Virus record (IMG/VR): IMGVR_UViG_2660238600_000001 | Coordinates: 1 to 9,649 of that record | Length of the DNA stretch: 9,649 bases | Reading direction: 5' to 3' (one strand) | From: a virus | Lineage: Duplodnaviria; Heunggongvirae; Uroviricota; Caudoviricetes | In this document: in pieces, positions 1 through 9,649 of the stretch | How positions within the stretch are numbered: position 1 is the first letter of the stretch | Layout: each line of letters opens with the position of its first letter | Made by a program: the position numbers and the translations under genes | The notes under the pieces: model-generated | The model's input: only the letters and a program-made list of their open reading frames with translations | What the model was told of the DNA's origin: nothing | Databases searched by the model: none

Positions 1-231
1 ATCATTTGCGGGTGCATGGCCCGTCTGAAAAAGAACAACAGCGATTTGCATGATTTATTAGTAGATTATTATATAGTCGGTATGACATTCATGTCACTGG
101 CAGGTAAGCATTGCTGCTCTGATGGTTATATCGGGAAAAGGTTACAAAAGGCTGAGGGCATAATTGAAGGGATGTTAATGGCATTAGATATCCGGTTAGA
201 GATAGATATCGTTGTTAATAACTCTAATTAA
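1..231 (+). CDS. 3' portion of a Q-like late-gene antiterminator (5' end lies outside the window)
   Basis: Frame 1 is open from base 1 ([20 protein letters not shown]...HCCSDGY...) to TAA at 229-231. Cys/His-rich as expected for zinc-binding Q proteins; lies directly upstream of the porin and lysis cassette as in DLP12-type prophages. Identity rests on recollection and synteny only. Confidence 0.45.
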
Positions 232-264
232 TACGCCAATTATTTACTAAAAGTTATTAAAAAT

Positions 265-288
265 GGGGCGTTGAAGCGCCCCCAAAAA
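265..288 (-). terminator. Intrinsic terminator read on the minus strand, downstream of the porin gene
   Basis: Stem GGGGCG (265-270) / CGCCCC (277-282) with 6-nt loop; on the minus strand the hairpin is followed by ATTTTT. No T-run on the plus strand. Confidence 0.4.
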
Positions 289-322
289 TAAAGGGTAATA
301 TATAACAGAAGGTTTGTATAGT

Positions 323-409
323 TAGAAGCAAGGTTGTGCTTCTAAAGGAAGTGGCTTGAGGGAGCCACTTATATGTTGGGGAGGCAAAGCCTCCCACAAC
401 ATATCTTTT
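323..409. other. Three consecutive perfect stem-loops between the Q-like ORF and the porin 3' end; the last may act as a plus-strand terminator
   Basis: Hairpins at 323-344 (8-bp stem), 349-370 (8-bp stem) and 371-404 (about 14-bp stem with one bulge), the last followed by CTTTTA at 405-410. Confidence 0.35.
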
Positions 410-419
410 AGTAATCAAA

Positions 420-1502
420 TTAGAACTGGTAAACCATACCTACAGCAACGATATCATCGGTAGCAACGCCAGATGCTTTCGTGAAATCGCTCTTATCAAT
501 CAGGTTGATTTTGTAGTCAACAAAAGTGGACATATTTTTGTTGAAGTAATAGGTTGCACCTACATCAACATATTCAACCAGGTCCTGATCACCCCAAACA
601 CCCAAGTCTTTTCCTTTAGAATGCAGGTAAGCAACGGATGGACGCAGGCCGAAGTCGAACTGATATTGTGCAACAGCTTCGAAGTTTTGTGCTTTGTTGG
701 CAATATGGTTATTACCAAAAACAGTCATGTTCTGGGTTTCAGAATAGGTGGTGGCCAGATAGATGTTGTTCGCATCATATTTCAGACCAGCTGCCCATAC
801 TTCAGCATTTTGACCAGAAGCATTCAGACCGTTGTTACCGAGGATAACCTGATTATTAGTGCGATCAGATTTAGCATAGGTTGCACCCACGCCGAATCCT
901 TCATACTCATAAGTAGTTGAGAAACCGAAACCATCGCCATTAGCTTCAGTTACTTCATTTCGGTCATTTTTGCCCTGATACTGAGCTGCAAAGTTCAGGC
1001 CATCAACCAGACCAAAGAAGTCGTTGTTACGATAAGTTGCAACACCTGTGGTGCGACCAGTCATGAATACATCTGTTTGGGTCCAGGTATCGCCACCGAA
1101 TTCTGGCAGAACGTCGGTCCATGCACCAATATCGTATGCTACACCGTAGTTACGGCCATAATCGATGGAGCCGTAGTCACCGAATTTCAGGCCAGCGAAG
1201 GCAAGACGGGTTTTATCTTTGGAGGAACCTTGAGATTCAGCGCGGTTGCCTTTGAATTCATATTCCCACTGACCGAAACCAGTCAGTTGATCGTTGATTT
1301 GGGTTTCACCTTTGAAGCCAAGACGGGCATAAGTAGTATCACCATCATCTGCATCATTAGAGGAGAAGTAGTGCTTAGCATTAACTTTCCCGTACAGATC
1401 CAGCTTGTTACTGTCTTTATTATAAATTTCAGCTGCCTGAGCAGACATCGCCATCAGTACTGATGCAGCTACAGCAGAAATTGCCACTGTTAATTTTTTC
1501 AT
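420..1502 (-). CDS. nmpC: Outer-membrane general porin, NmpC/OmpD/Lc subfamily of the OmpC/OmpF/PhoE family (prophage-borne)
   Basis: 360-aa minus-strand ORF from ATG at 1502-1500 to TAA at 422-420. Signal peptide [23 protein letters not shown], then [16 protein letters not shown], internal PEFGGD loop motif, and C-terminal ...VAVGMVYQF ending in Phe. The track's longer ORF adds 17 upstream codons with no signal-peptide logic. Confidence 0.9.
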
Positions 1503-1900
1503 CGTGAGACCTTTTTTTGAACATTTATTAAAAAATGATGCCCTGCGCGACAAATATTCATCTAATCAATGTGATTAATTCAAGATGTAAGTTTTAGATT
1601 CTTATTTAAATTGTGATCTAGATCTCTATTTTTATCTGAACTTTTTCTAATGCATGCTGTGCATGACTATTCTCTGAAAGAAAATAAATTTGGTAGCTAA
1701 ATTATATTAAAGGTTGTTATTTATAAGTGTTCTATAATTCATCTCTTTAATTTAAATTCACTGAAAATAACGTCGGAAATTATTTAATGATTATTTGTTT
1801 ATTTTTCCTTATGTGATTGTGGTGGTGTTTTGAACACTCGATATCATTCTCACAAATATTGTTTAGAGGTTTACGTACGTAAAAAATTGGTTATGCTGTT
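1503..1900 (-). promoter_or_regulatory. AT-rich upstream regulatory region of the porin gene (promoter not pinned down)
   Basis: About 400 bp of markedly AT-rich DNA with A/T tracts immediately 5' of the porin start. No unambiguous -35/-10 pair could be assigned by eye. Confidence 0.3.
1870..1897 (+). promoter_or_regulatory. Candidate sigma70 promoter; possible late-promoter (pR'-like) equivalent
   Basis: TTTACG (1870-1875), 16-bp spacer, TATGCT (1892-1897), about 30 bp upstream of a strong intrinsic terminator. Functional assignment is inference. Confidence 0.25.
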
Positions 1901-1927
1901 AAGAGTGGTTACTTCGCCACACAGCTT

Positions 1928-1953
1928 AAACCCGCCGTCGAGCGGGTTTTTTT
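1928..1953 (+). terminator. Rho-independent terminator (tR'-like position)
   Basis: AAACCCGC (1928-1935) / GCGGGTTT (1943-1950) stem with 7-nt loop, followed by a run of seven T (1947-1953). Confidence 0.6.
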
Positions 1954-2076
1954 GTACCTGTAAACCTGGTGCAGTACGGTAAACACGCTGGTGGTCGTGA
2001 ATACTGACTTTTTATCTTGCTGGCTTTTTAGACAAGAGTTATTGGTATGTCATGTTAACCATGAAGGTAAAAAGAC

Positions 2077-2271
2077 ATGCTAAAACAGCTAGATATGACA
2101 GAAACGGCGAAAGTTGTTTTTAATGAATTAAACGGCAAACCGGCAACAGTCGGGGAGATTGCACAAAACACATACCTTTCACGCGAACGCTGTCAGTTAA
2201 TACTGACCCAGCTGGTTATGGCGGGGCTGGCAGATTACCAGTTCGGCTGTTACAGACGCCTTCAGCAATGA
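2077..2271 (+). CDS. Small hypothetical protein (64 aa) with helix-turn-helix-like core
   Basis: ATG at 2077 with AAGG 9 nt upstream; segment ATVGEIAQNTYLSRERCQLILTQLVMAGL looks like a (winged) HTH. No family recognised. Confidence 0.5.
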   Translation: MLKQLDMTETAKVVFNELNGKPATVGEIAQNTYLSRERCQLILTQLVMAGLADYQFGCYRRLQQ

Positions 2272-2420
2272 AGGGCTTTTAATTTGTGAAAATGGGCGGC
2301 TGGTGGGTGTTGGTAGCACCTGCCAGCCATTCGCTCATGCTTACTGGTCACAAGCGAACCACGGCCCACTGCTTTAGCGCAAAAGCAGAGTGAGCCTACC
2401 AGAGTTACGCTTACTGATCC

Positions 2421-3473
2421 ATGAAAAATACTGTGAAAATAAACAGTACTGATTTAATCAACGCTGATTGCCTGCATTTTATTCAGTCCCTGCCTGATGA
2501 TTCCATTGACCTGATTGTTACCGATCCGCCGTACTTCAAGGTGAAACCCAACGGTTGGGACAATCAGTGGAAAGGGGACGAAGATTACCTGAAGTGGCTG
2601 GACCACTGTCTGGCTCAGTTCTGGCGGGTGCTGAAACCTGCCGGAAGCCTTTACCTGTTCTGTGGACATCGCCTCGCATCTGATATCGAGATCATGATGC
2701 GTGAACGTTTCAACGTTCTTAACCATATTATCTGGGCGAAGCCGTCCGGACGATGGAACGGGTGTAATAAAGAAAGTCTGCGCGCATATTTTCCCGCAAC
2801 AGAACGCGTTCTGTTTGCTGAACATTACCAGGGACCATATCGCGGCAAAAGTGACGGCTATGCGGCAAAAGAAAGTCAACTCAAACAGCACATAATGGCA
2901 CCGCTGATTTCGTATTTCAGGGATGCTCGTGCCGAACTGGGTATAACGGCAAAACAGATTGCCGAAGCCACTGGTAAGAAAAATATGGTTTCCCACTGGT
3001 TTGGTGCCAGTCAGTGGCAGTTGCCGAATGAGGCTGACTACCGGAAGTTGCAGGCACTGTTTTCCCGTATAGCGGCAGAGAAATTTCAGGAACAACAACT
3101 GGAACAACCACACCACCAGCTGGTGGCATCTTATGATTCACTGAATCGCAAATATTCTGAATTGCTGGATGAGTTTAAAACTCTCCGGCGCTATTTCTCC
3201 GTATCAGTTTCCGTGCCTTATACCGATGTCTGGACGCATAAACCCGTTCAGTTCTACCCGGGTAAACATCCGTGTGAGAAGCCTGCGGATATGCTCCGGC
3301 AAATAATCAGTGCCAGTAGTCGACAAGGCGATCTGGTTGCTGATTTCTTTATGGGATCCGGTTCCACAATAAAAGCGGCAATGGCGCTGGGGCGTCGGGC
3401 GTTAGGTGTTGAACTTGAGTCAGAGCGGTTTAATCAGACGGTGAAAGAGGTAAGTGAACTGGTGGGGAAATAA
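2421..3473 (+). CDS. Orphan DNA methyltransferase, beta-class amino-methyltransferase (N6-adenine or N4-cytosine)
   Basis: 350-aa ORF. Catalytic motif IV DPPY near the N-terminus (LIVTDPPYF) and AdoMet motif I near the C-terminus (DLVADFFMGSGST), i.e. beta-class order. No restriction endonuclease gene is adjacent. Confidence 0.9.
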   Translation: MKNTVKINSTDLINADCLHFIQSLPDDSIDLIVTDPPYFKVKPNGWDNQWKGDEDYLKWLDHCLAQFWRVLKPAGSLYLFCGHRLASDIEIMMRERFNVLNHIIWAKPSGRWNGCNKESLRAYFPATERVLFAEHYQGPYRGKSDGYAAKESQLKQHIMAPLISYFRDARAELGITAKQIAEATGKKNMVSHWFGASQWQLPNEADYRKLQALFSRIAAEKFQEQQLEQPHHQLVASYDSLNRKYSELLDEFKTLRRYFSVSVSVPYTDVWTHKPVQFYPGKHPCEKPADMLRQIISASSRQGDLVADFFMGSGSTIKAAMALGRRALGVELESERFNQTVKEVSELVGK

Positions 3474-3480
3474 TTCTGGT

Positions 3481-3506
3481 GGCCACGTTGCGTGGCCTTT
3501 TTATTT
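3481..3506 (+). terminator. Rho-independent terminator after the methyltransferase gene
   Basis: GGCCACG (3481-3487) / CGTGGCC (3491-3497) stem with 3-nt loop, followed by TTTTTATTT. Confidence 0.55.
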
Positions 3507-3549
3507 CCAACACAGCACCCGCAAATATCGCGAGGTGAGAGATGACGAA

Positions 3550-3885
3550 ATGCCTCATAACCCAAATACCTGGCCGGACTGGCTGGAGTTGTTTCAGAGC
3601 TGGTGGCGTGGAGATACGCCGCTGGGCGCAGTGATTATGTCGATTGTTATGGCTGGTTTGCGCATCGCCTATTTTGGCGGTGGTGGTGGCTGGAAGCGAA
3701 AAACGCTCGAGATTTTGCTATGTGGCGCTCTGACGTTGACCTTTGCATCCGCGCTTGAGTATGTCGGATGGCCTAAATCGCTTTCTGTTGCCATTGGTGG
3801 TGGGGTGGGGCTGATCGGTGTCGATGCTATTCGTGGGGCTGCAATGAGAGTAATCGGTAACAAGTTTGGTAGCTCGAAGGAGTAA
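3550..3885 (+). CDS. Holin, lambda S-like class I (three predicted transmembrane segments)
   Basis: ATG at 3550 preceded by GAGGTGA; three hydrophobic stretches (LGAVIMSIVMAGLRIAYF, TLEILLCGALTLTFASALEYV, LSVAIGGGVGLIGVDAI) and a charged C-terminus; directly upstream of R. The track's 3454 start would put the terminator hairpin inside the coding region. Confidence 0.7.
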   Translation: MPHNPNTWPDWLELFQSWWRGDTPLGAVIMSIVMAGLRIAYFGGGGGWKRKTLEILLCGALTLTFASALEYVGWPKSLSVAIGGGVGLIGVDAIRGAAMRVIGNKFGSSKE

Positions 3886-3888
3886 TTT

Positions 3889-4365
3889 ATGCAGGTACTA
3901 AATTCCCAGCGTAAAGCTTTCCTGGATATGGTTGCATGGTCAGAAGGAACGGATAACGGGCGACAACCGACACGTAACCACGGTTATGATGTTATTGTCG
4001 GTGGTGAACTGTTTACTGATTACTCCGATCACCCTCGCAAACTTGTCACGCTAAACCCAAAACTCAAATCAACAGCAGCCGGACGTTACCAGCTTCTTTC
4101 CCGTTGGTGGGATGCCTATCGTAAGCAGCTTGGCCTGAAAGACTTCTCTCCGAAAAGCCAGGACGCTGTGGCATTGCAACAGATTAAAGAGCGTGGCGCT
4201 TTACCGATGATTGACCGCGGTGATATTCGTCAGGCAATCGACCGTTGCAGCAATATCTGGGCTTCATTGCCGGGCGCTGGTTATGGTCAGTTCGAGCATA
4301 AGGCTGACAGTCTGATTTCAAAATTCAAAGAAGCAGGCGGAACGGTCAGAGAGATTGAGGCATGA
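3889..4365 (+). CDS. R: Endolysin, lambda R-type lytic transglycosylase
   Basis: 158 aa, nearly collinear with lambda R as recalled ([22 protein letters not shown]...[24 protein letters not shown]...). The catalytic Glu of the WSEGT motif is present. Confidence 0.92.
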
Positions 4366-4820
4366 GCAGAGTCACCGCGATTATCTCCGCTCTGGTTATC
4401 TGCATCATCGTCTGCCTGTTATGGGCTGTTAATCATTACCGTGATAACGCAATCGCCTACAAAGAGCAGCGCGATAACAAGGCCAGTGAACTGGAGAAGG
4501 CGAACGCCACCATCGCTGACATGCGGAAGCGTCAACGTGATGTAGCAGAACTCGACGCAAGATACACAAAGGAGCTTGCTGATGCTAACGCGACTATCGA
4601 AAGTCTCCGTGCTGATGTTTCTGCTGGGCGTAAGCGCCTGCAAGTCGCCGCCACCTGTGCAAAGTCAACGACCGGAGCCAGCGGCATGGGCGATGGAGAA
4701 AGCCCAGGACTTACAGCAGATGCTGAACTCAATTATTACCGTCTCCGAAGTGGAATCGACAAGATAACCGCGCAGGTTAACTACCTGCAGGAATACATCA
4801 GGACGCAATGCCTGAAATAA
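4362..4820 (+). CDS. Rz: Rz inner-membrane spanin (i-spanin)
   Basis: ATGA start/stop overlap with R; N-terminal transmembrane segment [23 protein letters not shown] followed by a charged coiled-coil region; closely lambda Rz-like. Confidence 0.9.
4582..4767 (+). CDS. Rz1: Rz1 outer-membrane lipoprotein spanin (o-spanin), embedded in the +1 frame of Rz
   Basis: ATG at 4582 with AGGAG 8 nt upstream; lipoprotein signal with lipobox (LLGVSAC), then a proline-rich segment ([15 protein letters not shown]). The track's TTG start at 4576 is less likely. Confidence 0.8.
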
Positions 4821-4851
4821 TTTTTTTGCAAATCACAAAGTCCATTTAATG

Positions 4852-4877
4852 AGCCTCGCGATGCGGGGCTTTTTTTA
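4852..4877 (+). terminator. Rho-independent terminator after the lysis cassette
   Basis: AGCCTCGC (4852-4859) / GCGGGGCT (4863-4870) stem with one G-U pair, followed by TTTTTTT (4870-4876). Confidence 0.6.
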
Positions 4878-5025
4878 CATCTGAATTTCACAGCGCATCT
4901 CACGCGCATATTACATCACCCGAGCCTTTCAGAAAGTTGAGCCTGAGAACTGCCGTATATGGTGGCGACCATCTCGGGGCGGCTTTTCTGTGAGACAGGC
5001 TCACTTTCTAAAAGGTAAAGACGCT

Positions 5026-5514
5026 ATGAACCAATTAGAAGAAAAGCTTCAAAGAATGATTTCCTTATACAAGGAAGATAACTGCCAAAAAGTTCCTGAA
5101 AACATCGCAGAGTTAATGGAATTGGCAAGTGAATTTTCTGGCATGCTTAAGTCGTCAGGTGTTCGGTCAGCGTTCTTTGTTGAAATGCTGATGCACGGCG
5201 GACTTATGGCAACAATGAGACGTGTAATGGAAGACCAGAGAAAAGAACCTCCTCAGGTATACGTTTTGTCATCGAAGAAAACTGGGCTAACCAAAATTGG
5301 GTATTCATCCAACATTCCACAACGCATCAAATCGCTTGGCAACTCTGGACCAGACTGCTTGAAGCTTGAGTGCCTGATCCCTGGTGGAAGAGAAACTGAA
5401 AACATGCTTCATCGCAAATTTGCCGCAAAGAGAAAGCACGGTGAATGGTTCGCCCTGTCCAAGGATGACATTGAGGGATTGAAATCTGTAGCGATTACTT
5501 CTGATGGCTATTAA
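5026..5514 (+). CDS. T5orf172 (GIY-YIG superfamily-like) domain protein with an unassigned helical N-terminal region; moron at the lambda bor position
   Basis: ATG at 5026 with AAAGG upstream, 162 aa. C-terminal half carries the T5orf172-type pattern: VYVLSS...GLTKIGYS...RIKSL...LKLECLIPGGRETENMLHRKFAAKRKHGEWFAL. The N-terminal 90 aa matches nothing I recognise. Confidence 0.7.
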   Translation: MNQLEEKLQRMISLYKEDNCQKVPENIAELMELASEFSGMLKSSGVRSAFFVEMLMHGGLMATMRRVMEDQRKEPPQVYVLSSKKTGLTKIGYSSNIPQRIKSLGNSGPDCLKLECLIPGGRETENMLHRKFAAKRKHGEWFALSKDDIEGLKSVAITSDGY

Positions 5515-5554
5515 TGCTTGTTTAGAGCAATTTTCATAACAACTCTTCATTACA

Positions 5555-5583
5555 AAGCCCATCTACTGGTGGGCTTGATAATG
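5555..5583. repeat. Hairpin-GATAATG element, copy 1
   Basis: AAGCCCA (5555-5561) / TGGGCTT (5570-5576) stem with 8-nt loop, immediately followed by GATAATG (5577-5583). Confidence 0.4.
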
Positions 5584-5828
5584 AAACCGTGATTTACATC
5601 CCCACAATCCGGGTATGTAAAAGATAGTTCAGGCGAGAACGGATTTAACTAAATCTGTGCGCCACCAGTTAACGGCAGTACCACGAAACAACCCAAGCCA
5701 GTAAGTGGGGAAATAACACCGGCAGCCACTGAAAGATGAACCTCCTGCCTTATGGCAAAAAAGATTCTTTGTGGTGGCGGACTGATGGAAAGACATCCTA
5801 ATTTCAGCCAAACATTGAAGGAGTTGTT

Positions 5829-5900
5829 ATGTCAGCAGAAGGTTTCAATAACCCATCAAAATTCCGGGATGAGTGGGATAGCAGCGTAAAGAGTAAGTGA
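5829..5900 (+). CDS. Very short ORF (23 aa) with strong ribosome-binding site; coding status uncertain
   Basis: GAAGGAG (5817-5823), 5-nt spacer, ATG 5829: MSAEGFNNPSKFRDEWDSSVKSK. Its TGA overlaps the ATG of a 12-codon ORF (5900-5938, MPSQKPFPTEWL) as TGATG. Confidence 0.2.
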   Translation: MSAEGFNNPSKFRDEWDSSVKSK

Positions 5901-5910
5901 TGCCATCACA

Positions 5911-5943
5911 AAAGCCATTCCCTACAGAGTGGCTTTGATAATG
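5911..5943. repeat. Hairpin-GATAATG element, copy 2
   Basis: AAAGCCA (5911-5917) / TGGCTTT (5930-5936) stem with 12-nt loop, followed by GATAATG (5937-5943). Stem differs from copy 1 by compensatory changes while the 3' heptamer is conserved. Confidence 0.4.
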
Positions 5944-6192
5944 GCTTATACCCTACACGGGATAACTTAACTGATATCCCTTTTAAAGGATAAAGGTATT
6001 CAAGCCTGACACATCATGCGCTGTATCGTCGCCGTATTCCCGTATTAACAGAGACCGTAGCCCGACGGGGAACTCCTTCTGCGCGAGTGTGTGGGAATAA
6101 TCAAAAACGATGCACACCGGGGTTACCGGGTACACATATTTCATCATGCCAGCGAGTCCGGTTCTGGCACGGAAGAAACCGGACGTTATGAT

Positions 6193-6603
6193 TTAGTGCG
6201 GAAATATTTGTGTAGTGTTCTGAATGTTCTCAGTAAAGAGTAATGAATTATCAAAGGTATAGTAATACCTTTTGTTTTCGTGGATATTTGTAATCCATCT
6301 GAAAACCCCTGCAGTAGCAAGATTTTTCCTGTATTCGTAAAATGATAACTCTCCTGATTTGAATCCTTTTAAGGTGGCTTCTATAAGGCATTTATTTTTT
6401 GAAAATCTTACATTTACAACCTTACCCTGTCCTTTTATTAAAACCGTATTATCGTTTTCAAGAACAAGATGAATATTCTCTGTGGCTAAATAGTAAATGT
6501 AATGTGAGACATTGTGACGTTTTAGTTCAGAATAAAACCAGTGATAGTTTAAATTATTTCGCACTTTATCGAATATTTGTTTAAAAATGGCAACCTGAGC
6601 CAT
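6193..6603 (-). CDS. AT-rich hypothetical protein, 136 aa (YbcV / DUF1398-like by recollection)
   Basis: Start at ATG 6603 (MAQVAIFKQ...) preferred over 6618 because GGAAGG lies 8 nt upstream on the minus strand. Markedly lower GC than flanking genes; Tyr/Asn/Lys-rich. Family assignment is from memory of the equivalent DLP12/lambda right-arm ORF. Confidence 0.6.
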
Positions 6604-6659
6604 TGTAGTACCTTCCATGTGATATGAGGGGTGTAGTCTGCACGATTATCTAAATTGCT

Positions 6660-6893
6660 TCAATCTGGTCTGATCTGTTTTCTGAGCAATTCAGTAATGT
6701 CACTCTTTTCTTTGTTTGCTTCAGGAGAAACTCTTTTTTCTGAGCACAGTCTCCGGCGGCAGGCTTCAATGACCCAGGCTGAGAAATTCCCGGACCCTTT
6801 TTGATCAAGAGCGATGTTAATTTGTTCAATCATTTGGTTAGGAAAGCGGATGTTGCGGGTTGTTGTTCTGCGGGTTCTGTTCTTCGTTGACAT
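6660..6893 (-). CDS. Ribbon-helix-helix (Arc/MetJ/CopG-like) putative DNA-binding protein, 77 aa
   Basis: Basic N-terminus then RNIRFPNQMIEQINIALDQKGSGNFSAWVIEACRRRL, i.e. a beta-strand / helix / helix layout like Arc. ATG at 6893; weak RBS. Confidence 0.6.
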   Translation of the reverse strand: MSTKNRTRRTTTRNIRFPNQMIEQINIALDQKGSGNFSAWVIEACRRRLCSEKRVSPEANKEKSDITELLRKQIRPD

Positions 6894-7062
6894 GAGGTTG
6901 TCCCGTATTCAGTGTCGCTGATTTGTATTGTCTGAAGTTGTTTTTACGTTAAGTTGATGCAGATCAATTAATATGATACCTGCGTCATAATTGATTATTT
7001 GACGTGGTTTGATGGCGTAGATGCACGTTGTGACATGCAGATGATAATTATTATCATTTTGC

Positions 7063-7262
7063 GGGTCCTTTCCGGCGATCCGACAGGTTACGGGGCGGCG
7101 ACCTCGCGGGTTTTCGCTATTTATGAAAATTTTCCGGTTTAAGGCATTTCCGTTCTTCTTCGTCGTAACTTAATGTTTTTATTTAAAATATCCCCTGAAA
7201 AGAAAGGAAACGACAGGTGCTGAAAACGAGCTTTTGGGCCTCTGTCGTTTCCTTTCTCTGTT
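7063..7262 (+). other. Lambda-type cos site: cosQ (about 7063-7069), cosN with 12-nt cohesive-end sequence GGGCGGCGACCT (7093-7104), cosB with R3/I1/R2/R1 (about 7145-7258)
   Basis: ...GGGTCCTTTCCGGCGATCCGACAGGTTACG | GGGCGGCGACCTCGCGGGTTTTCGCTATTTATGAAAATTTTCCGG... matches the recalled junction of lambda right and left ends. Repeated R-site cores at 7145-7162, 7202-7217 (inverted) and 7242-7258, with an A/T-rich bend site between. Confidence 0.85.
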
Positions 7263-7281
7263 TTTGGCCGTGGAATGAACA

Positions 7282-7827
7282 ATGGAAGTCAACAAAAAGC
7301 AGCTGGCTGACATTTTCGGTGCGAGTATCCGTACCATTCAGAACTGGCAGGAACAGGGAATGCCAGTTCTGCGAGGCGGTGGCAAGGGTAATGAGGTGCT
7401 TTATGACTCTGCCGCCGTTATAAGATGGTATGCCGAAAGGGATGCTGAAATTGAGAACGAAAAGCTGCGCCGGGAAGTTGAAGAACTGCGGCAGGCCAGC
7501 GAGACAGATCTCCAGCCAGGGACTATTGAGTACGAACGCCATCGACTTACGCGTGCGCAGGCCGACGCACAGGAGCTGAAAAATGCCAGAGACTCCGCTG
7601 AAGTGGTGGAAACCGCATTCTGTACTTTCGTGCTGTCGCGGATCGCAGGTGAAATTGCCAGTATTCTCGACGGGATCCCCCTGTCGGTGCAGCGGCGTTT
7701 TCCGGAACTGGAAAACCGACATGTTGATTTCCTGAAACGGGATATCATCAAAGCCATGAACAAAGCAGCCGCGCTGGATGAACTGATACCGGGGTTGCTG
7801 AGTGAATATATCGAACAGTCAGGTTAA
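7282..7827 (+). CDS. nu1: Terminase small subunit Nu1
   Basis: 181 aa, near-identical to lambda Nu1 as recalled (MEVNKKQLADIFGASIRTIQNWQEQGMPVLRGGGKGNEVLYDSAAV...); N-terminal winged HTH; overlaps A by 26 nt as in lambda. Confidence 0.95.
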   Translation: MEVNKKQLADIFGASIRTIQNWQEQGMPVLRGGGKGNEVLYDSAAVIRWYAERDAEIENEKLRREVEELRQASETDLQPGTIEYERHRLTRAQADAQELKNARDSAEVVETAFCTFVLSRIAGEIASILDGIPLSVQRRFPELENRHVDFLKRDIIKAMNKAAALDELIPGLLSEYIEQSG

Positions 7828-8056
7828 CAGGCTGCGGCATTTTGTCCGCGCCGGGCTTCGCTCACTGTTCAGGCCGGAGCCACAGACCGCCGTTGAATGG
7901 GCGGATGCTAATTACTATCTCCCGAAAGAATCCGCATACCAGGAAGGGCGCTGGGAAACACTGCCCTTTCAGCGGGCCATCATGAATGCGATGGGCAGCG
8001 ACTACATCCGTGAGGTGAATGTGGTGAAGTCTGCCCGTGTCGGTTATCTCCGGTGA
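7802..8056 (+). pseudogene. A: Terminase large subunit A, N-terminal remnant (about 82 codons, then a 2-codon out-of-context tail)
   Basis: MNISNSQVNRLRHFVRAGLRSLFRPEPQTAVEWADANYYLPKESAYQEGRWETLPFQRAIMNAMGSDYIREVNVVKSARVGY matches the lambda A N-terminus; after VGY the frame reads LR-stop. The ATPase and nuclease domains are absent. Confidence 0.85.
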
Positions 8057-8075
8057 GCCGGAGGAGTATTTCCGG

Positions 8076-8675
8076 ATGTCGCCGGAGGACTGGCTGCGGG
8101 CAGAAATGCAGGGTGAGATTGTGGCGCTGGTCCACAGCCACCCCGGTGGTCTGCCCTGGCTGAGTGAGGCCGACCGGCGGCTGCAGGTGCAGAGTGATTT
8201 GCCGTGGTGGCTGGTCTGCCGGGGGACGATTCATAAGTTCCGCTGTGTGCCGCATCTCACCGGGCGGCGCTTTGAGCACGGTGTGACGGACTGTTACACA
8301 CTGTTCCGGGATGCTTATCATCTGGCGGGGATTGAGATGCCGGACTTTCATCGTGAGGATGACTGGTGGCGTAACGGCCAGAATCTCTATCTGGATAATC
8401 TGGAGGCGACGGGGCTGTATCAGGTGCCGTTGTCAGCGGCACAGCCGGGCGATGTGCTGCTGTGCTGTTTTGGTTCATCAGTGCCGAATCACGCCGCAAT
8501 TTACTGCGGCGACGGCGAGCTGCTGCACCATATTCCTGAACAACTGAGCAAACGAGAGAGGTACACCGACAAATGGCAGCGACGCACACACTCCCTCTGG
8601 CGTCACCGGGCATGGCGCGCATCTGCCTTTACGGGGATTTACAACGATTTGGTCGCCGCATCGACCTTCGTGTGA
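8076..8675 (+). CDS. K: Tail tip assembly protein K (JAMM/MPN plus NlpC/P60 domains), apparently full length
   Basis: ATG at 8076 with GGAGGAG 9 nt upstream; 199 aa; JAMM motif HSHPGGLPWLSEAD and NlpC/P60 Cys region GVTDCYTLFRDAYHLAG. Length and the 103-nt overlap with I match my recollection of lambda K. Confidence 0.8.
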   Translation: MSPEDWLRAEMQGEIVALVHSHPGGLPWLSEADRRLQVQSDLPWWLVCRGTIHKFRCVPHLTGRRFEHGVTDCYTLFRDAYHLAGIEMPDFHREDDWWRNGQNLYLDNLEATGLYQVPLSAAQPGDVLLCCFGSSVPNHAAIYCGDGELLHHIPEQLSKRERYTDKWQRRTHSLWRHRAWRASAFTGIYNDLVAASTFV

Positions 8676-9118
8676 AAACGGGGGCTGAAGCCATCCGGGC
8701 ACTGGCCACACAGCTCCCGGCGTTTCGTCAGAAACTGAGCGACGGCTGGTATCAGGTACGGATTGCCGGGCGGGACGTCAGCACGTCCGGGTTAACGGCG
8801 CAGTTACATGAGACTCTGCCTGATGGCGCTGTGATTCATATTGTTCCCAGAGTCGCCGGGGCCAAGTCAGGTGGCGTATTCCAGATTGTCCTGGGGGCTG
8901 CCGCCATTGCCGGATCATTCTTTACCGCCGGAGCCACCCTTGCAGCATGGGGGGCAGCCATTGGGGCCGGTGGTATGACCGGCATCCTGTTTTCTCTCGG
9001 TGCCAGTATGGTGCTCGGTGGTGTGGCGCAGATGCTGGCACCGAAAGCCAGAACTCCCCGTACACAGACAACGGATAGCCGCGCTGACAGACAATACGCA
9101 GGGGGCAGCAGGTCTTGA
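8573..9118 (+). pseudogene. I: Tail assembly protein I, truncated (about 170 N-terminal residues, then an unrelated 12-residue tail)
   Basis: MAATHTLPLASPGMARICLYGDLQRFGRRIDLRVKTGAEAIRAL...[19 protein letters not shown] follows lambda I, then diverges ([13 protein letters not shown]-stop); lambda I is about 223 aa by recollection. Confidence 0.75.
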
Positions 9119-9122
9119 GTTA

Positions 9123-9649
9123 TACGAGGTGTATAACAACGGATATCCAACAGCGTATGGAAATATCATTCACCTGAAAGGGATGACAGCCGTTGGCGAA
9201 GGTGAGTTACTCATCGGCTGGAGTGGTACAAGCGGTGCTCATGCTCCGGCATTTATTCGTTCACGACGGGATATGACCGGCGCAAACTGGTCGCCGTGGG
9301 CGCAGCTTTACACCTCGGCTCATCCTCCTGCAGAGTTTTATCCAGTCGGTGCACCAATCCCGTGGCCATCAGATACCGTTCCGTCTGGTTATGCCCTGAT
9401 GCAGGGGCAGACTTTTGACAAATCTGCTTACCCGAAACTTGCAGCCGCTTATCCGTCAGGCGTGATCCCTGATATGCGTGGCTGGACGATTAAGGGCAAG
9501 CCCGCCAGTGATCGAGCCGTATTGTCTCAGGAACAGGACGGCATTAAATCACACACCCACAGCGCCAGCGTATCCAGTACGGATTTGGGGACGAAAACCA
9601 CATCGTCGTTTGATTACGGCACTAAATCCACGAATAACACTGGTGCGCA
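9123..9649 (+). pseudogene. Side tail-fibre C-terminal fragment (Stf-like), no own start, continues beyond the window; left boundary approximate
   Basis: Frame 0 reads ...[62 protein letters not shown]...[76 protein letters not shown]...[13 protein letters not shown]. The last two thirds match the lambda Stf C-terminal module as recalled. Confidence 0.65.

Follow-up and report, generated by a model that had tools for sequence, protein, structure and literature searches.

What maintains two related hairpins in a stretch of phage DNA that appears to hold hardly any genes? The locus in question lies in the Caudoviricetes record IMGVR_UViG_2660238600_000001, of which positions 1 to 9,649 were analysed as a whole (hereafter, the window). 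There, ~680 unannotated bases follow a gene of the T5orf172/GIY-YIG type. A sequence-only reading of this region had pointed out two stem-loops, each followed by the heptamer GATAATG and accompanied by very short open reading frames (ORFs), and had proposed that they represent a small RNA, a regulated leader or paired operator sites. Here we report that both are copies of a previously uncatalogued, well-supported element, a hairpin selected for pairing on one strand, which ends gene cassettes within the Q-dependent late transcript and belongs with the conserved intergenic stem-loops that bound mobile phage gene cassettes.

Two copies of a two-tier hairpin

On recheck against the sequence, all coordinates given for the two stems, the GATAATG heptamers and the small ORFs were correct. 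The core of copy 1 comprises AAGCCCA (5555-5561), TGGGCTT (5570-5576) and GATAATG (5577-5583), and that of copy 2 comprises AAAGCCA (5911-5917), TGGCTTT (5930-5936) and GATAATG (5937-5943), with a spacing of 360 nt between the copies. A repeat search revealed inverted repeats longer than the 7-bp stems noticed originally, 16 nt at 88% for copy 1 (5546-5561/5570-5585) and 19 nt at 79% for copy 2 (5902-5920/5927-5945), as well as a 15-nt direct repeat, GTGGsyTTGATAATG, common to both.

RNA folding yielded the same general shape for each, a two-tier hairpin of ~45 nt in which a lower stem of 5-7 bp (CAUUA/UAAUG) is separated by a 2x2 internal loop (CA/GA) from an upper stem of 9-10 bp with a loop of 4-6 nt. 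Copy 1, a type A hairpin on the plus strand at 5545..5587, has its lower stem at 5546-5552/5579-5585, its internal loop at CA 5553-5554 / GA 5577-5578 and its upper stem at 5555-5563/5568-5576, closed by the loop UACU (5564-5567). In copy 2, a type B hairpin on the plus strand at 5901..5947, the lower stem occupies 5902-5906/5941-5945, the internal loop is enlarged (5907-5910/5937-5940), and the upper stem, 5911-5920/5927-5936, carries the loop CCUACA (5921-5926). GATAATG, first described as a separate motif behind the stem, is mainly the 3' strand of the lower stem and pairs with the upstream CATTA.

The minimum free energies were -22.2 kcal/mol for copy 1 (z -5.9) and -21.1 kcal/mol for copy 2 (z -4.7), and in neither case did any of 200 shuffled sequences fold as well. 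A covariance model built from homologues recognized exactly two sites in the window, copy 1 at 53.8 bits (E 2e-12) and copy 2 at 55 bits (E 9e-13), the next-best match scoring 12.9 bits; the two elements are far above chance expectation. That next-best match (6242-6298, minus strand, E 0.12), which belongs to the 3' portion of the DUF1398 gene, reads ATTACAAA...AAGGTAT-TACT-ATACCTT-TGATAAT and contains a perfect 8-bp hairpin. We also observed that ACTGGTGG at 5565-5572, across the loop and 3' arm of copy 1, matches the Chi octamer GCTGGTGG at seven of eight positions; other type A copies have CGGGTGG in place of this near-Chi sequence.

Selection on pairing, and its strand

That the two stems differ and remain complementary had been taken to suggest selection on structure, and the alignment of 73 distinct homologues bears this out, with double-sided compensatory changes in 11 of 16 pairs. 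Standard pairs fill 96.7% of the cells in these 73 elements, as against 80.7% in shuffled data and 34-50% after a shift of the partner by one to three columns, and the covariation score was 0.553 versus 0.244, with none of 500 shuffles reaching 0.553. RNAalifold, run independently, returned the same two-tier hairpin with 14 pairs, 10 of them compensatory. When matches were taken on the flanks only, at least six of the seven stem pairs were formed in 296 of 316, representing 42 distinct stem pair-types; 13 sites that failed stem pairing were random matches. The outer parts of the element behave likewise: the lower-stem pair 8-39 passes from A-U through G-U to G-C where GATAATG becomes GACAATG, and pair 3-44, which lies outside the searched sequence, occurs in six pair types. 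The variable stem, the apex and pair 3-44 were all free of constraint by the search patterns.

Mismatches are distributed unequally between the strands. The alignment contains 150 G.U cells versus 4 A.C cells, there is one A.C only among the distinct stems with a single mismatch, and the covariance model scores ~60 bits on the late-transcript strand versus ~18 on the reverse. Because G.U greatly outnumbers A.C and the reverse strand scores far lower, selection for the structure has acted on one strand, in the form of RNA or of single-stranded DNA (ssDNA) of the late-transcript strand.

These results bear directly on two of the identities proposed at the outset, paired operators in double-stranded DNA and a stand-alone small RNA gene. 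Two similar dyad-symmetric sites 360 bp apart, with a GATAAT that resembles a -10 box, do recall such arrangements. However, the asymmetry between G.U and A.C is incompatible with a duplex site, the copies number from one to four per phage at unrelated spacings, and no promoter adjoins them; a dyad-symmetric operator pair was rejected. As for a small RNA gene, the distance from ATTACA to GATAAT, 22-26 nt, is too long for a sigma-70 promoter; a promoter scan found nothing at 5545-5587 or 5901-5947; no U-tract terminator is present; and no family of Rfam 15 matched the elements at E<=1 by covariance model, in the window or in five other loci. We consider both identities extremely unlikely. Elsewhere, Rfam models of small RNAs did match a few kb from elements in two IMG/VR prophage contigs (L138, 7865-8218; L168, 5430-5617), namely STnc100 at 104 and 72 bits and isrJ at 63 bits.

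Several further identities were tried and rejected. The boundary features bsq2-bsq7 annotated in Sf6 do not overlap either of the two Sf6 elements, and the anti-sRNA loci of enterohaemorrhagic E. coli prophages reside elsewhere, at the Q-S moron site (PMC4104026). Inspection by eye argued against a type I-E or I-F CRISPR repeat mimic (the stems vary and there is no fixed Cas6 recognition sequence), an IHF site (TATCAA is present with no TTR after it), a tRNA T-loop (the equivalent of A58 is U in half of the copies), boxB/nut and put RNAs (wrong operon and shape) and the use of GATAATG as a start codon (no Shine-Dalgarno sequence, SD).

Spread and variation of the element

The region is mosaic. 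Among 5426 complete E. coli genomes, 2557 have some part of it and only 70 the whole stretch, and it matches 210 phage records, including HK544, HK106, Sf6, HK620, HK97, HK022, P22, L, ES18 and Stx2 phages. The segments that recur are the two hairpins; the DNA between them is absent or replaced by Gp49-family, Rha or KilA-N genes. The element itself is present in P22, L, Sf6, HK620, HK97, HK544, ES18 and thousands of E. coli prophages. Copy 1 is found with the same stem after Rha, KilA-N/hkbL or T5orf172 genes in L, HK97, HK620, Sf6, ES18, HK544 and an O157 prophage, and an element identical to copy 2 has a Gp49-family gene before it in Sf6 and E. coli prophages and stands directly after the Rz terminator in IMG/VR phages. 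Twelve annotated loci display three stem types, all fully complementary: AAGCCCA/TGGGCTT, AAAGCCA/TGGCTTT and GAGGCCA/TGGCCTC, the last with the variant GAGACCA/TGGTCTC.

Loci were collected with patterns that hold parts of the element, by two scans of IMG/VR that returned at least 120 matches each, and the species genomes of GTDB were scanned with one strict pattern. The latter was found in at least 20 species of Enterobacterales, from Kluyvera, Citrobacter and Enterobacter to Pectobacterium, Yersinia, Rahnella and Pragia, and the IMG/VR and GTDB scans together yielded more than 40 different yet complementary stem pair-types. The resulting consensus is cATTACA, a variable 7-bp stem, TTC-AWT-GAG, the complementary stem and GATAATG; different genera share the sequence of the lower stem, of the CA/GA loop and of the apical UUC-AWU-GAG, and the 7-bp middle helix varies freely.

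Cassette ends in the late transcript

The elements lie in the Q-dependent late operon, on the late-transcript strand, as judged from gene order, with the lysis cassette before them and the packaging genes after. A scan of the whole Sf6 genome (NC_005344.1) gave two matches only, 37832-37874 and 38496-38542, both between Rz and the small terminase gene. Of 226 loci, 171 have a same-strand lysis gene upstream and 105 have a terminase gene downstream, at median distances of 867 nt and 828 nt respectively, and no case of reversed order or orientation was encountered. In ~115 of 261 distinct contexts the element starts no more than 15 nt past a same-strand stop codon. Where arrays are compact, 17-31 nt separate it from the next start codon. 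The upstream genes closed in this manner are those for Rha, KilA-N/hkbL, T5orf172, Gp49-family, DUF2560, Acb2/Tad1-type anti-CBASS and Big_1 proteins. Phages carry one to four copies, some of them three to four within 1-2.5 kb. For instance, locus L168 (1-3600, minus strand) contains four hairpins in 2.4 kb, among which a DUF2560-plus-hairpin unit is duplicated around a 1.7-kb insert with opposite-strand zinc-ribbon ORFs.

The elements are cassette-end hairpins of late transcripts, restricted to the accessory region that separates lysis from terminase genes, and the proposal of a leader specific to the T5orf172 locus has to be abandoned. Of the two copies in the window, the first ends the T5orf172 cassette and the second a cassette composed of two non-coding segments (S2 and S3) and a 23-codon micro-gene, all described below. 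In one of the collected loci (L146) the protein closed by the element, near 4476, matches Pfam Acb2/Tad1, and an ORF similar to it stands just after the spanin genes in L168. Such protein matches suggest that the hot spot between lysis and terminase genes carries anti-defence cassettes.

Terminators and attenuators

The sequence-only reading had also allowed that the stems might prove to be ordinary terminators of the flanking genes. This is not what we found. The hairpins are stable and G+C-rich (-21 to -22 kcal/mol), as an intrinsic terminator demands, but they have no U-tract, the upper stem being followed by GAUAAUG and the lower stem by variable flanks that are not U-rich, and a terminator scan returned nothing at either copy. 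The only terminator-like match in the scan, a weak G.U-rich stem in S3 at 5762-5741 on the minus strand, coincides with a 'terminator' annotated in phage L. A paper on the pid locus of P22 describes a separate U-tract terminator downstream of pid and is silent on the hairpin (PMC8835761).

A subtler role in transcription would be that of an attenuator or insulator, which stops or pauses polymerase lacking Q, so that the cassettes and the morphogenetic genes stay silent in the lysogen, and which Q-modified polymerase reads through. A stable hairpin placed directly after genes of a Q-dependent operon fits this scheme, as does the small hairpin plus UUUU that type B and C copies have ~15 nt further on; moreover, the stem-loop half of PeSL (promoter-early stem-loop), a motif of T4-type phages, has been proposed to act in this way, and PeSL stem-loops lower downstream lacZ expression like a strong terminator (PMC2839356). 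Yet neither the upper nor the lower stem is backed by a U-tract or recognized by the terminator scan, a canonical terminator is already present after Rz (according to the HK544 and ES18 annotations and the sequence of locus L004), and a simple terminator would need neither the conserved internal loop nor the apex. On balance we think attenuation unlikely.

Mosaic joints and the cassette analogy

Comparison of loci indicates that mosaic breakpoints pile up at or inside the element, where phages appear to exchange cassettes. An O157:H7 prophage has a single element in which the stem of copy 1 is fused to the downstream flank of copy 2 exactly at GATAATG. Where pairs of loci have a common upstream flank, they diverge just where the element ends on its 3' side (positions 35-36) or 6-7 nt further on (41-43); where they have a common downstream flank, divergence begins within the element or at its 5' end. 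Individual cases agree with this pattern, such as that of phage L, in which the left arm and the right flank are unpaired at 3-44.

This arrangement resembles that of integron attC sites, each of which ends one promoterless gene cassette of uniform orientation, folds as a single strand with structure kept more than sequence, and has a conserved basal stem, an unpaired spacer and a variable helix. The hairpin might by analogy be an ssDNA recombination site, the folded strand serving as substrate of a dedicated recombinase or nuclease that moves gene-plus-hairpin cassettes. Same-orientation cassettes ended by hairpins of this build, selection on one strand, junctions exactly after GATAATG and the duplicated cassette-plus-hairpin unit are all in keeping with such a site. 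The likeness stops at the details, however. The RYYYAAC/GTTRRRY core is absent, the flanks being CATTACA/GATAATG, and there are no R/L core sequences or extrahelical bases; pair 3-44, beyond the conserved core, covaries, so that the structure outreaches the would-be crossover point; breakpoints are not confined to one phosphodiester bond, many of them falling inside the element or 6-7 nt past it, as homology-driven exchange predicts; and in the loci examined, where the flanking genes were lysis, accessory and terminase genes, we encountered no IntI-like or other dedicated recombinase, although no scan was aimed at one. We accordingly hold an attC-like recombination site to be highly unlikely.

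A broader version would make the hairpin the cis site of an undescribed system of cassette mobility or control in temperate enterobacterial phages, a counterpart of attC. A specific factor would then bind one strand, as RNA or folded ssDNA, by its lower stem, CA/GA loop and UUC-AWU-GAG apex, and cassettes such as those of Acb2/Tad1, Rha and KilA-N would be inserted, excised or individually regulated in the lysis-to-terminase hot spot. We regard this as a long shot.

A putative RNA processing or stability element

Our preferred interpretation, which we put forward tentatively and rate as possible rather than probable, is that the hairpin is an intercistronic RNA processing or stability element. 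A hairpin right after a stop codon is a classical protection of the upstream message from 3' exonucleases. The ~45-nt hairpin would be transcribed within the Q-antiterminated late mRNA, in the short gaps between accessory cistrons, and could act in either of two ways. In the first, it would be an RNase III site of the T7 type, composed of upper stem, internal loop and lower stem. In the second, it would be a barrier to 3' exonucleases, by which the upstream cistron would keep a protective hairpin, the downstream cistron would begin with a 5' hairpin, or both. Either way, each accessory cassette would have a fate of its own, uncoupled from the remainder of the long late mRNA. As DNA, these conserved 35-45 bp might provide a homology patch for inserting, deleting and exchanging gene-plus-hairpin cassettes. 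Such a patch would be used by Rad52-type phage recombinases and would explain the joints and the duplications; these recombinases can act on homologies that are short and diverged (PMC2327257).

The first version is modelled on well-known elements of T7. Sites of the T7 R1.1 type for RNase III are intercistronic hairpins in polycistronic phage mRNA with an upper stem, an internal loop and a lower stem (Dunn & Studier 1983; Nicholson reviews). Like these, the element is an irregular hairpin between cistrons of a long phage mRNA, as its fold, its covariation and its position in the late operon indicate, and the copies of any one genome resemble each other in sequence; if cut in the internal loop, the upstream message would retain a hairpin that protects its 3' end. 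Unlike them, it has a shorter helix (10 plus 5-8 bp) and a symmetric 2x2 internal loop, and the likeness is one of architecture.

Several considerations weigh against an RNA processing or stability element. The RNA function is proposed by analogy and not from transcript ends, cleavage sites or half-lives. G.T is the least destabilising mismatch in ssDNA too, and strand asymmetry alone cannot separate RNA from ssDNA. For RNase III the helix is rather short, with 10 bp, a 2x2 loop and then 5-8 bp. Sequence conservation of the lower stem, internal loop and apex across genera points to a specific partner, something that a generic exonuclease barrier could do without. Alignment columns 5-10 and 37-43 were fixed by the search patterns, and the conservation of the flanks is partly by construction. 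Finally, the breakpoint counts are made of non-independent pairs and not of separate events.

If there is a specific partner, the element might be an operator for a sequence-specific RNA-binding protein of phage or host that controls translation or decay of a neighbouring cistron. A conserved lower stem, CA/GA loop and UUC-AWU-GAG apex around a free middle helix are the usual signature of such sites, and in compact arrays the next SD lies 15-30 nt downstream. However, the downstream SD and start codon are outside the structure, no candidate protein co-occurs with the element, and its carriers are podoviruses and siphoviruses with unrelated structural modules. This makes a protein operator distinctly unlikely in our view.

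Segments and small ORFs around the copies

The observation that no convincing ORF of 60 aa or more lies downstream of the T5orf172 gene holds, and the RefSeq annotation of 5515-6192 is also empty. A mosaic map from BLAST searches and the coverage profile resolved the intervening DNA into segments, all on the plus strand. S2 (5590..5662) is non-coding filler found only in Sf6, HK620 and some E. coli prophages. S3 (5663..5797), a non-coding segment of 135 nt, follows rha-type genes in P22, L, HK97, HK620, Sf6 and UTI89 and also occurs in many prophages, with 92-98% identity across the compared loci. Its ~97 distinct copies contain 22 variable sites, spread over the codon phases as 8/8/6; with no bias among phases, a coding role was rejected, and so was a structured RNA (z -0.8 and -1.2). 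The part that stands out most is 5690-5797, and a closing helix, 5661-5668 with 5772-5779, was noted. S3 may be young shared DNA.

The coding part of the copy-2 cassette is the micro-gene MSAEGFNNPSKFRDEWDSSVKSK, which has the SD GAAGGAG at 5817-5823 and a 23-codon ORF at 5829-5900 on the plus strand. This SD-led ORF had been singled out in the sequence-only reading, and its pattern of substitution indicates that it is very probably a gene. The peptide core GF[NDE]NPSKFR[DE]EWD is constant in five nucleotide variants that have several synonymous differences (GGT/GGC, CCA/CCT, TCA/TCC, AAA/AAG, CGG/CGC/CGT and GAG/GAA), and a tblastn search retrieved the peptide from 12 phage records of five genera, including phages of Salmonella, Enterobacter, Proteus and Cronobacter. 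In other phages the micro-gene is located a few bases upstream of the small-terminase start. Against Pfam it gave a weak, sub-threshold match to DUF2740. Most annotations have overlooked it. As a separate observation, CATAACAACTC at 5535-5545, after the T5orf172 stop codon, is perfectly complementary over 11 nt to GAGTTGTTATG at 5821-5831, which spans the SD and start of the micro-gene; the complementarity is absent from HK544, ~0.08 such pairs are expected by chance in 800 nt, and it is probably a chance occurrence.

The other two small ORFs fared less well. The 45-codon ORF (5752..5889, plus strand) was rejected as spurious: it has no SD, and its ATG lies in S3, where the variable sites have no codon-phase bias. 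The same ATG is the start of 'orf118' of phage L (MW013503.1, locus L002, 2647-3003), which is read across a type C hairpin and whose last ~80 residues resemble, by eye, a DUF2560 protein starting after the hairpin; the annotated start of 'orf118' is probably over-extended. The 12-codon ORF (5900..5938, plus strand) does overlap the micro-gene by TGATG, at the coordinates first given, and reads through the hairpin. Beyond this stop-codon overlap nothing supports its translation, and other type B copies have different upstream contexts without its ATG.

Downstream of copy 2, S5 (5948..5994, plus strand) corresponds to the leader of the DUF2560 gene in P22-like phages and is truncated here. It folds into a small hairpin, GGGAUA (5959-5964) with UAUCCC (5975-5980), followed by UUUU (5981-5984). 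The segment recurs behind elements of types A, B and C in ~60 distinct contexts, with the small hairpin ~15 nt past the element. This hairpin may be a weak terminator.

Prophage setting of the window

The window is part of a DLP12-like lambdoid prophage of E. coli, defective and partly deleted. It begins with the C-terminus of the Q antiterminator (16-231). The moron site between Q and holin contains a porin gene (420-1553, minus strand) and an N6/N4 DNA methylase gene (2421-3473); where this downstream region occurs in other carriers, the site is occupied by other inserts, such as lipocalin, YbgA or a helix-turn-helix (HTH) protein. Next come the holin gene, which ends at 3885, Rz (4362-4820) and the T5orf172/GIY-YIG-type gene (5026-5514, plus strand; Pfam T5orf172 3.3e-10 and MUG113 7.4e-15), annotated in RefSeq as a GIY-YIG nuclease family protein. 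Beyond the hairpins lie a DUF1398 gene (6193-6603, minus strand), a DUF3950/YlcI gene (6660-6893, minus strand), the Nu1 small terminase gene (7282-7827) and, directly after Nu1, an NlpC/P60+JAB ORF resembling the lambda K tail gene (8037-8675). The GC content jumps here from ~0.43 to 0.60, and the genes from large terminase through most of the head and tail are missing.

Relation to described elements

Our search of the literature retrieved no earlier description of the hairpin, although the original HK620 and Sf6 genome papers could still mention the element. The 'boundary sequences' (bsq) of HK620 and Sf6, reportedly put forward by Clark and co-workers in 2001 as guides of homologous exchange, are likewise short conserved sequences at mosaic-module junctions in lambdoid phages. 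They differ in that bsq2-bsq7 of Sf6 (NC_005344.1) lie off the elements and in that bsq have not been described as strand-specific hairpins.

The closest described analogue is PeSL, a mobile regulatory cassette found in T4-type phages (Arbiol et al. 2010, PMC2839356; Comeau et al. 2014, PMC4122927). Like PeSL, the element is a short conserved intergenic motif with a stable, G-T-tolerant stem-loop that extends from the upstream stop codon to the downstream SD; it is also found in hyperplastic accessory regions beside ORFans, where it marks points of module insertion, deletion and swapping. Unlike PeSL, it has neither a sigma-70 promoter (-35/-10 at 16-18 bp) nor a terminator-type stem with a G/C tract, and it is two-tiered with a conserved internal loop and apex. 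Furthermore, it resides in the Q-dependent late operon of temperate phages, whereas PeSL is found in early regions of virulent myoviruses.

Conclusions

The hairpin provides a precise sequence-and-structure marker of cassette boundaries in a major hot spot of lambdoid and P22-like phages between lysis and terminase genes, where rha, kilA, pid-type ORFans and Acb2/Tad1 anti-defence genes are found, and with the covariance model one could define the limits of such cassettes in prophages and mine them. It is also a candidate RNA motif outside Rfam, for which the evidence of covariation and strand is unusually clean for 45 nt. If it is true that a specific factor reads the bases of the loop and stem, the element would represent a new layer of control or mobility for the late-operon accessory genes of model phages, P22, HK97 and Sf6 among them.

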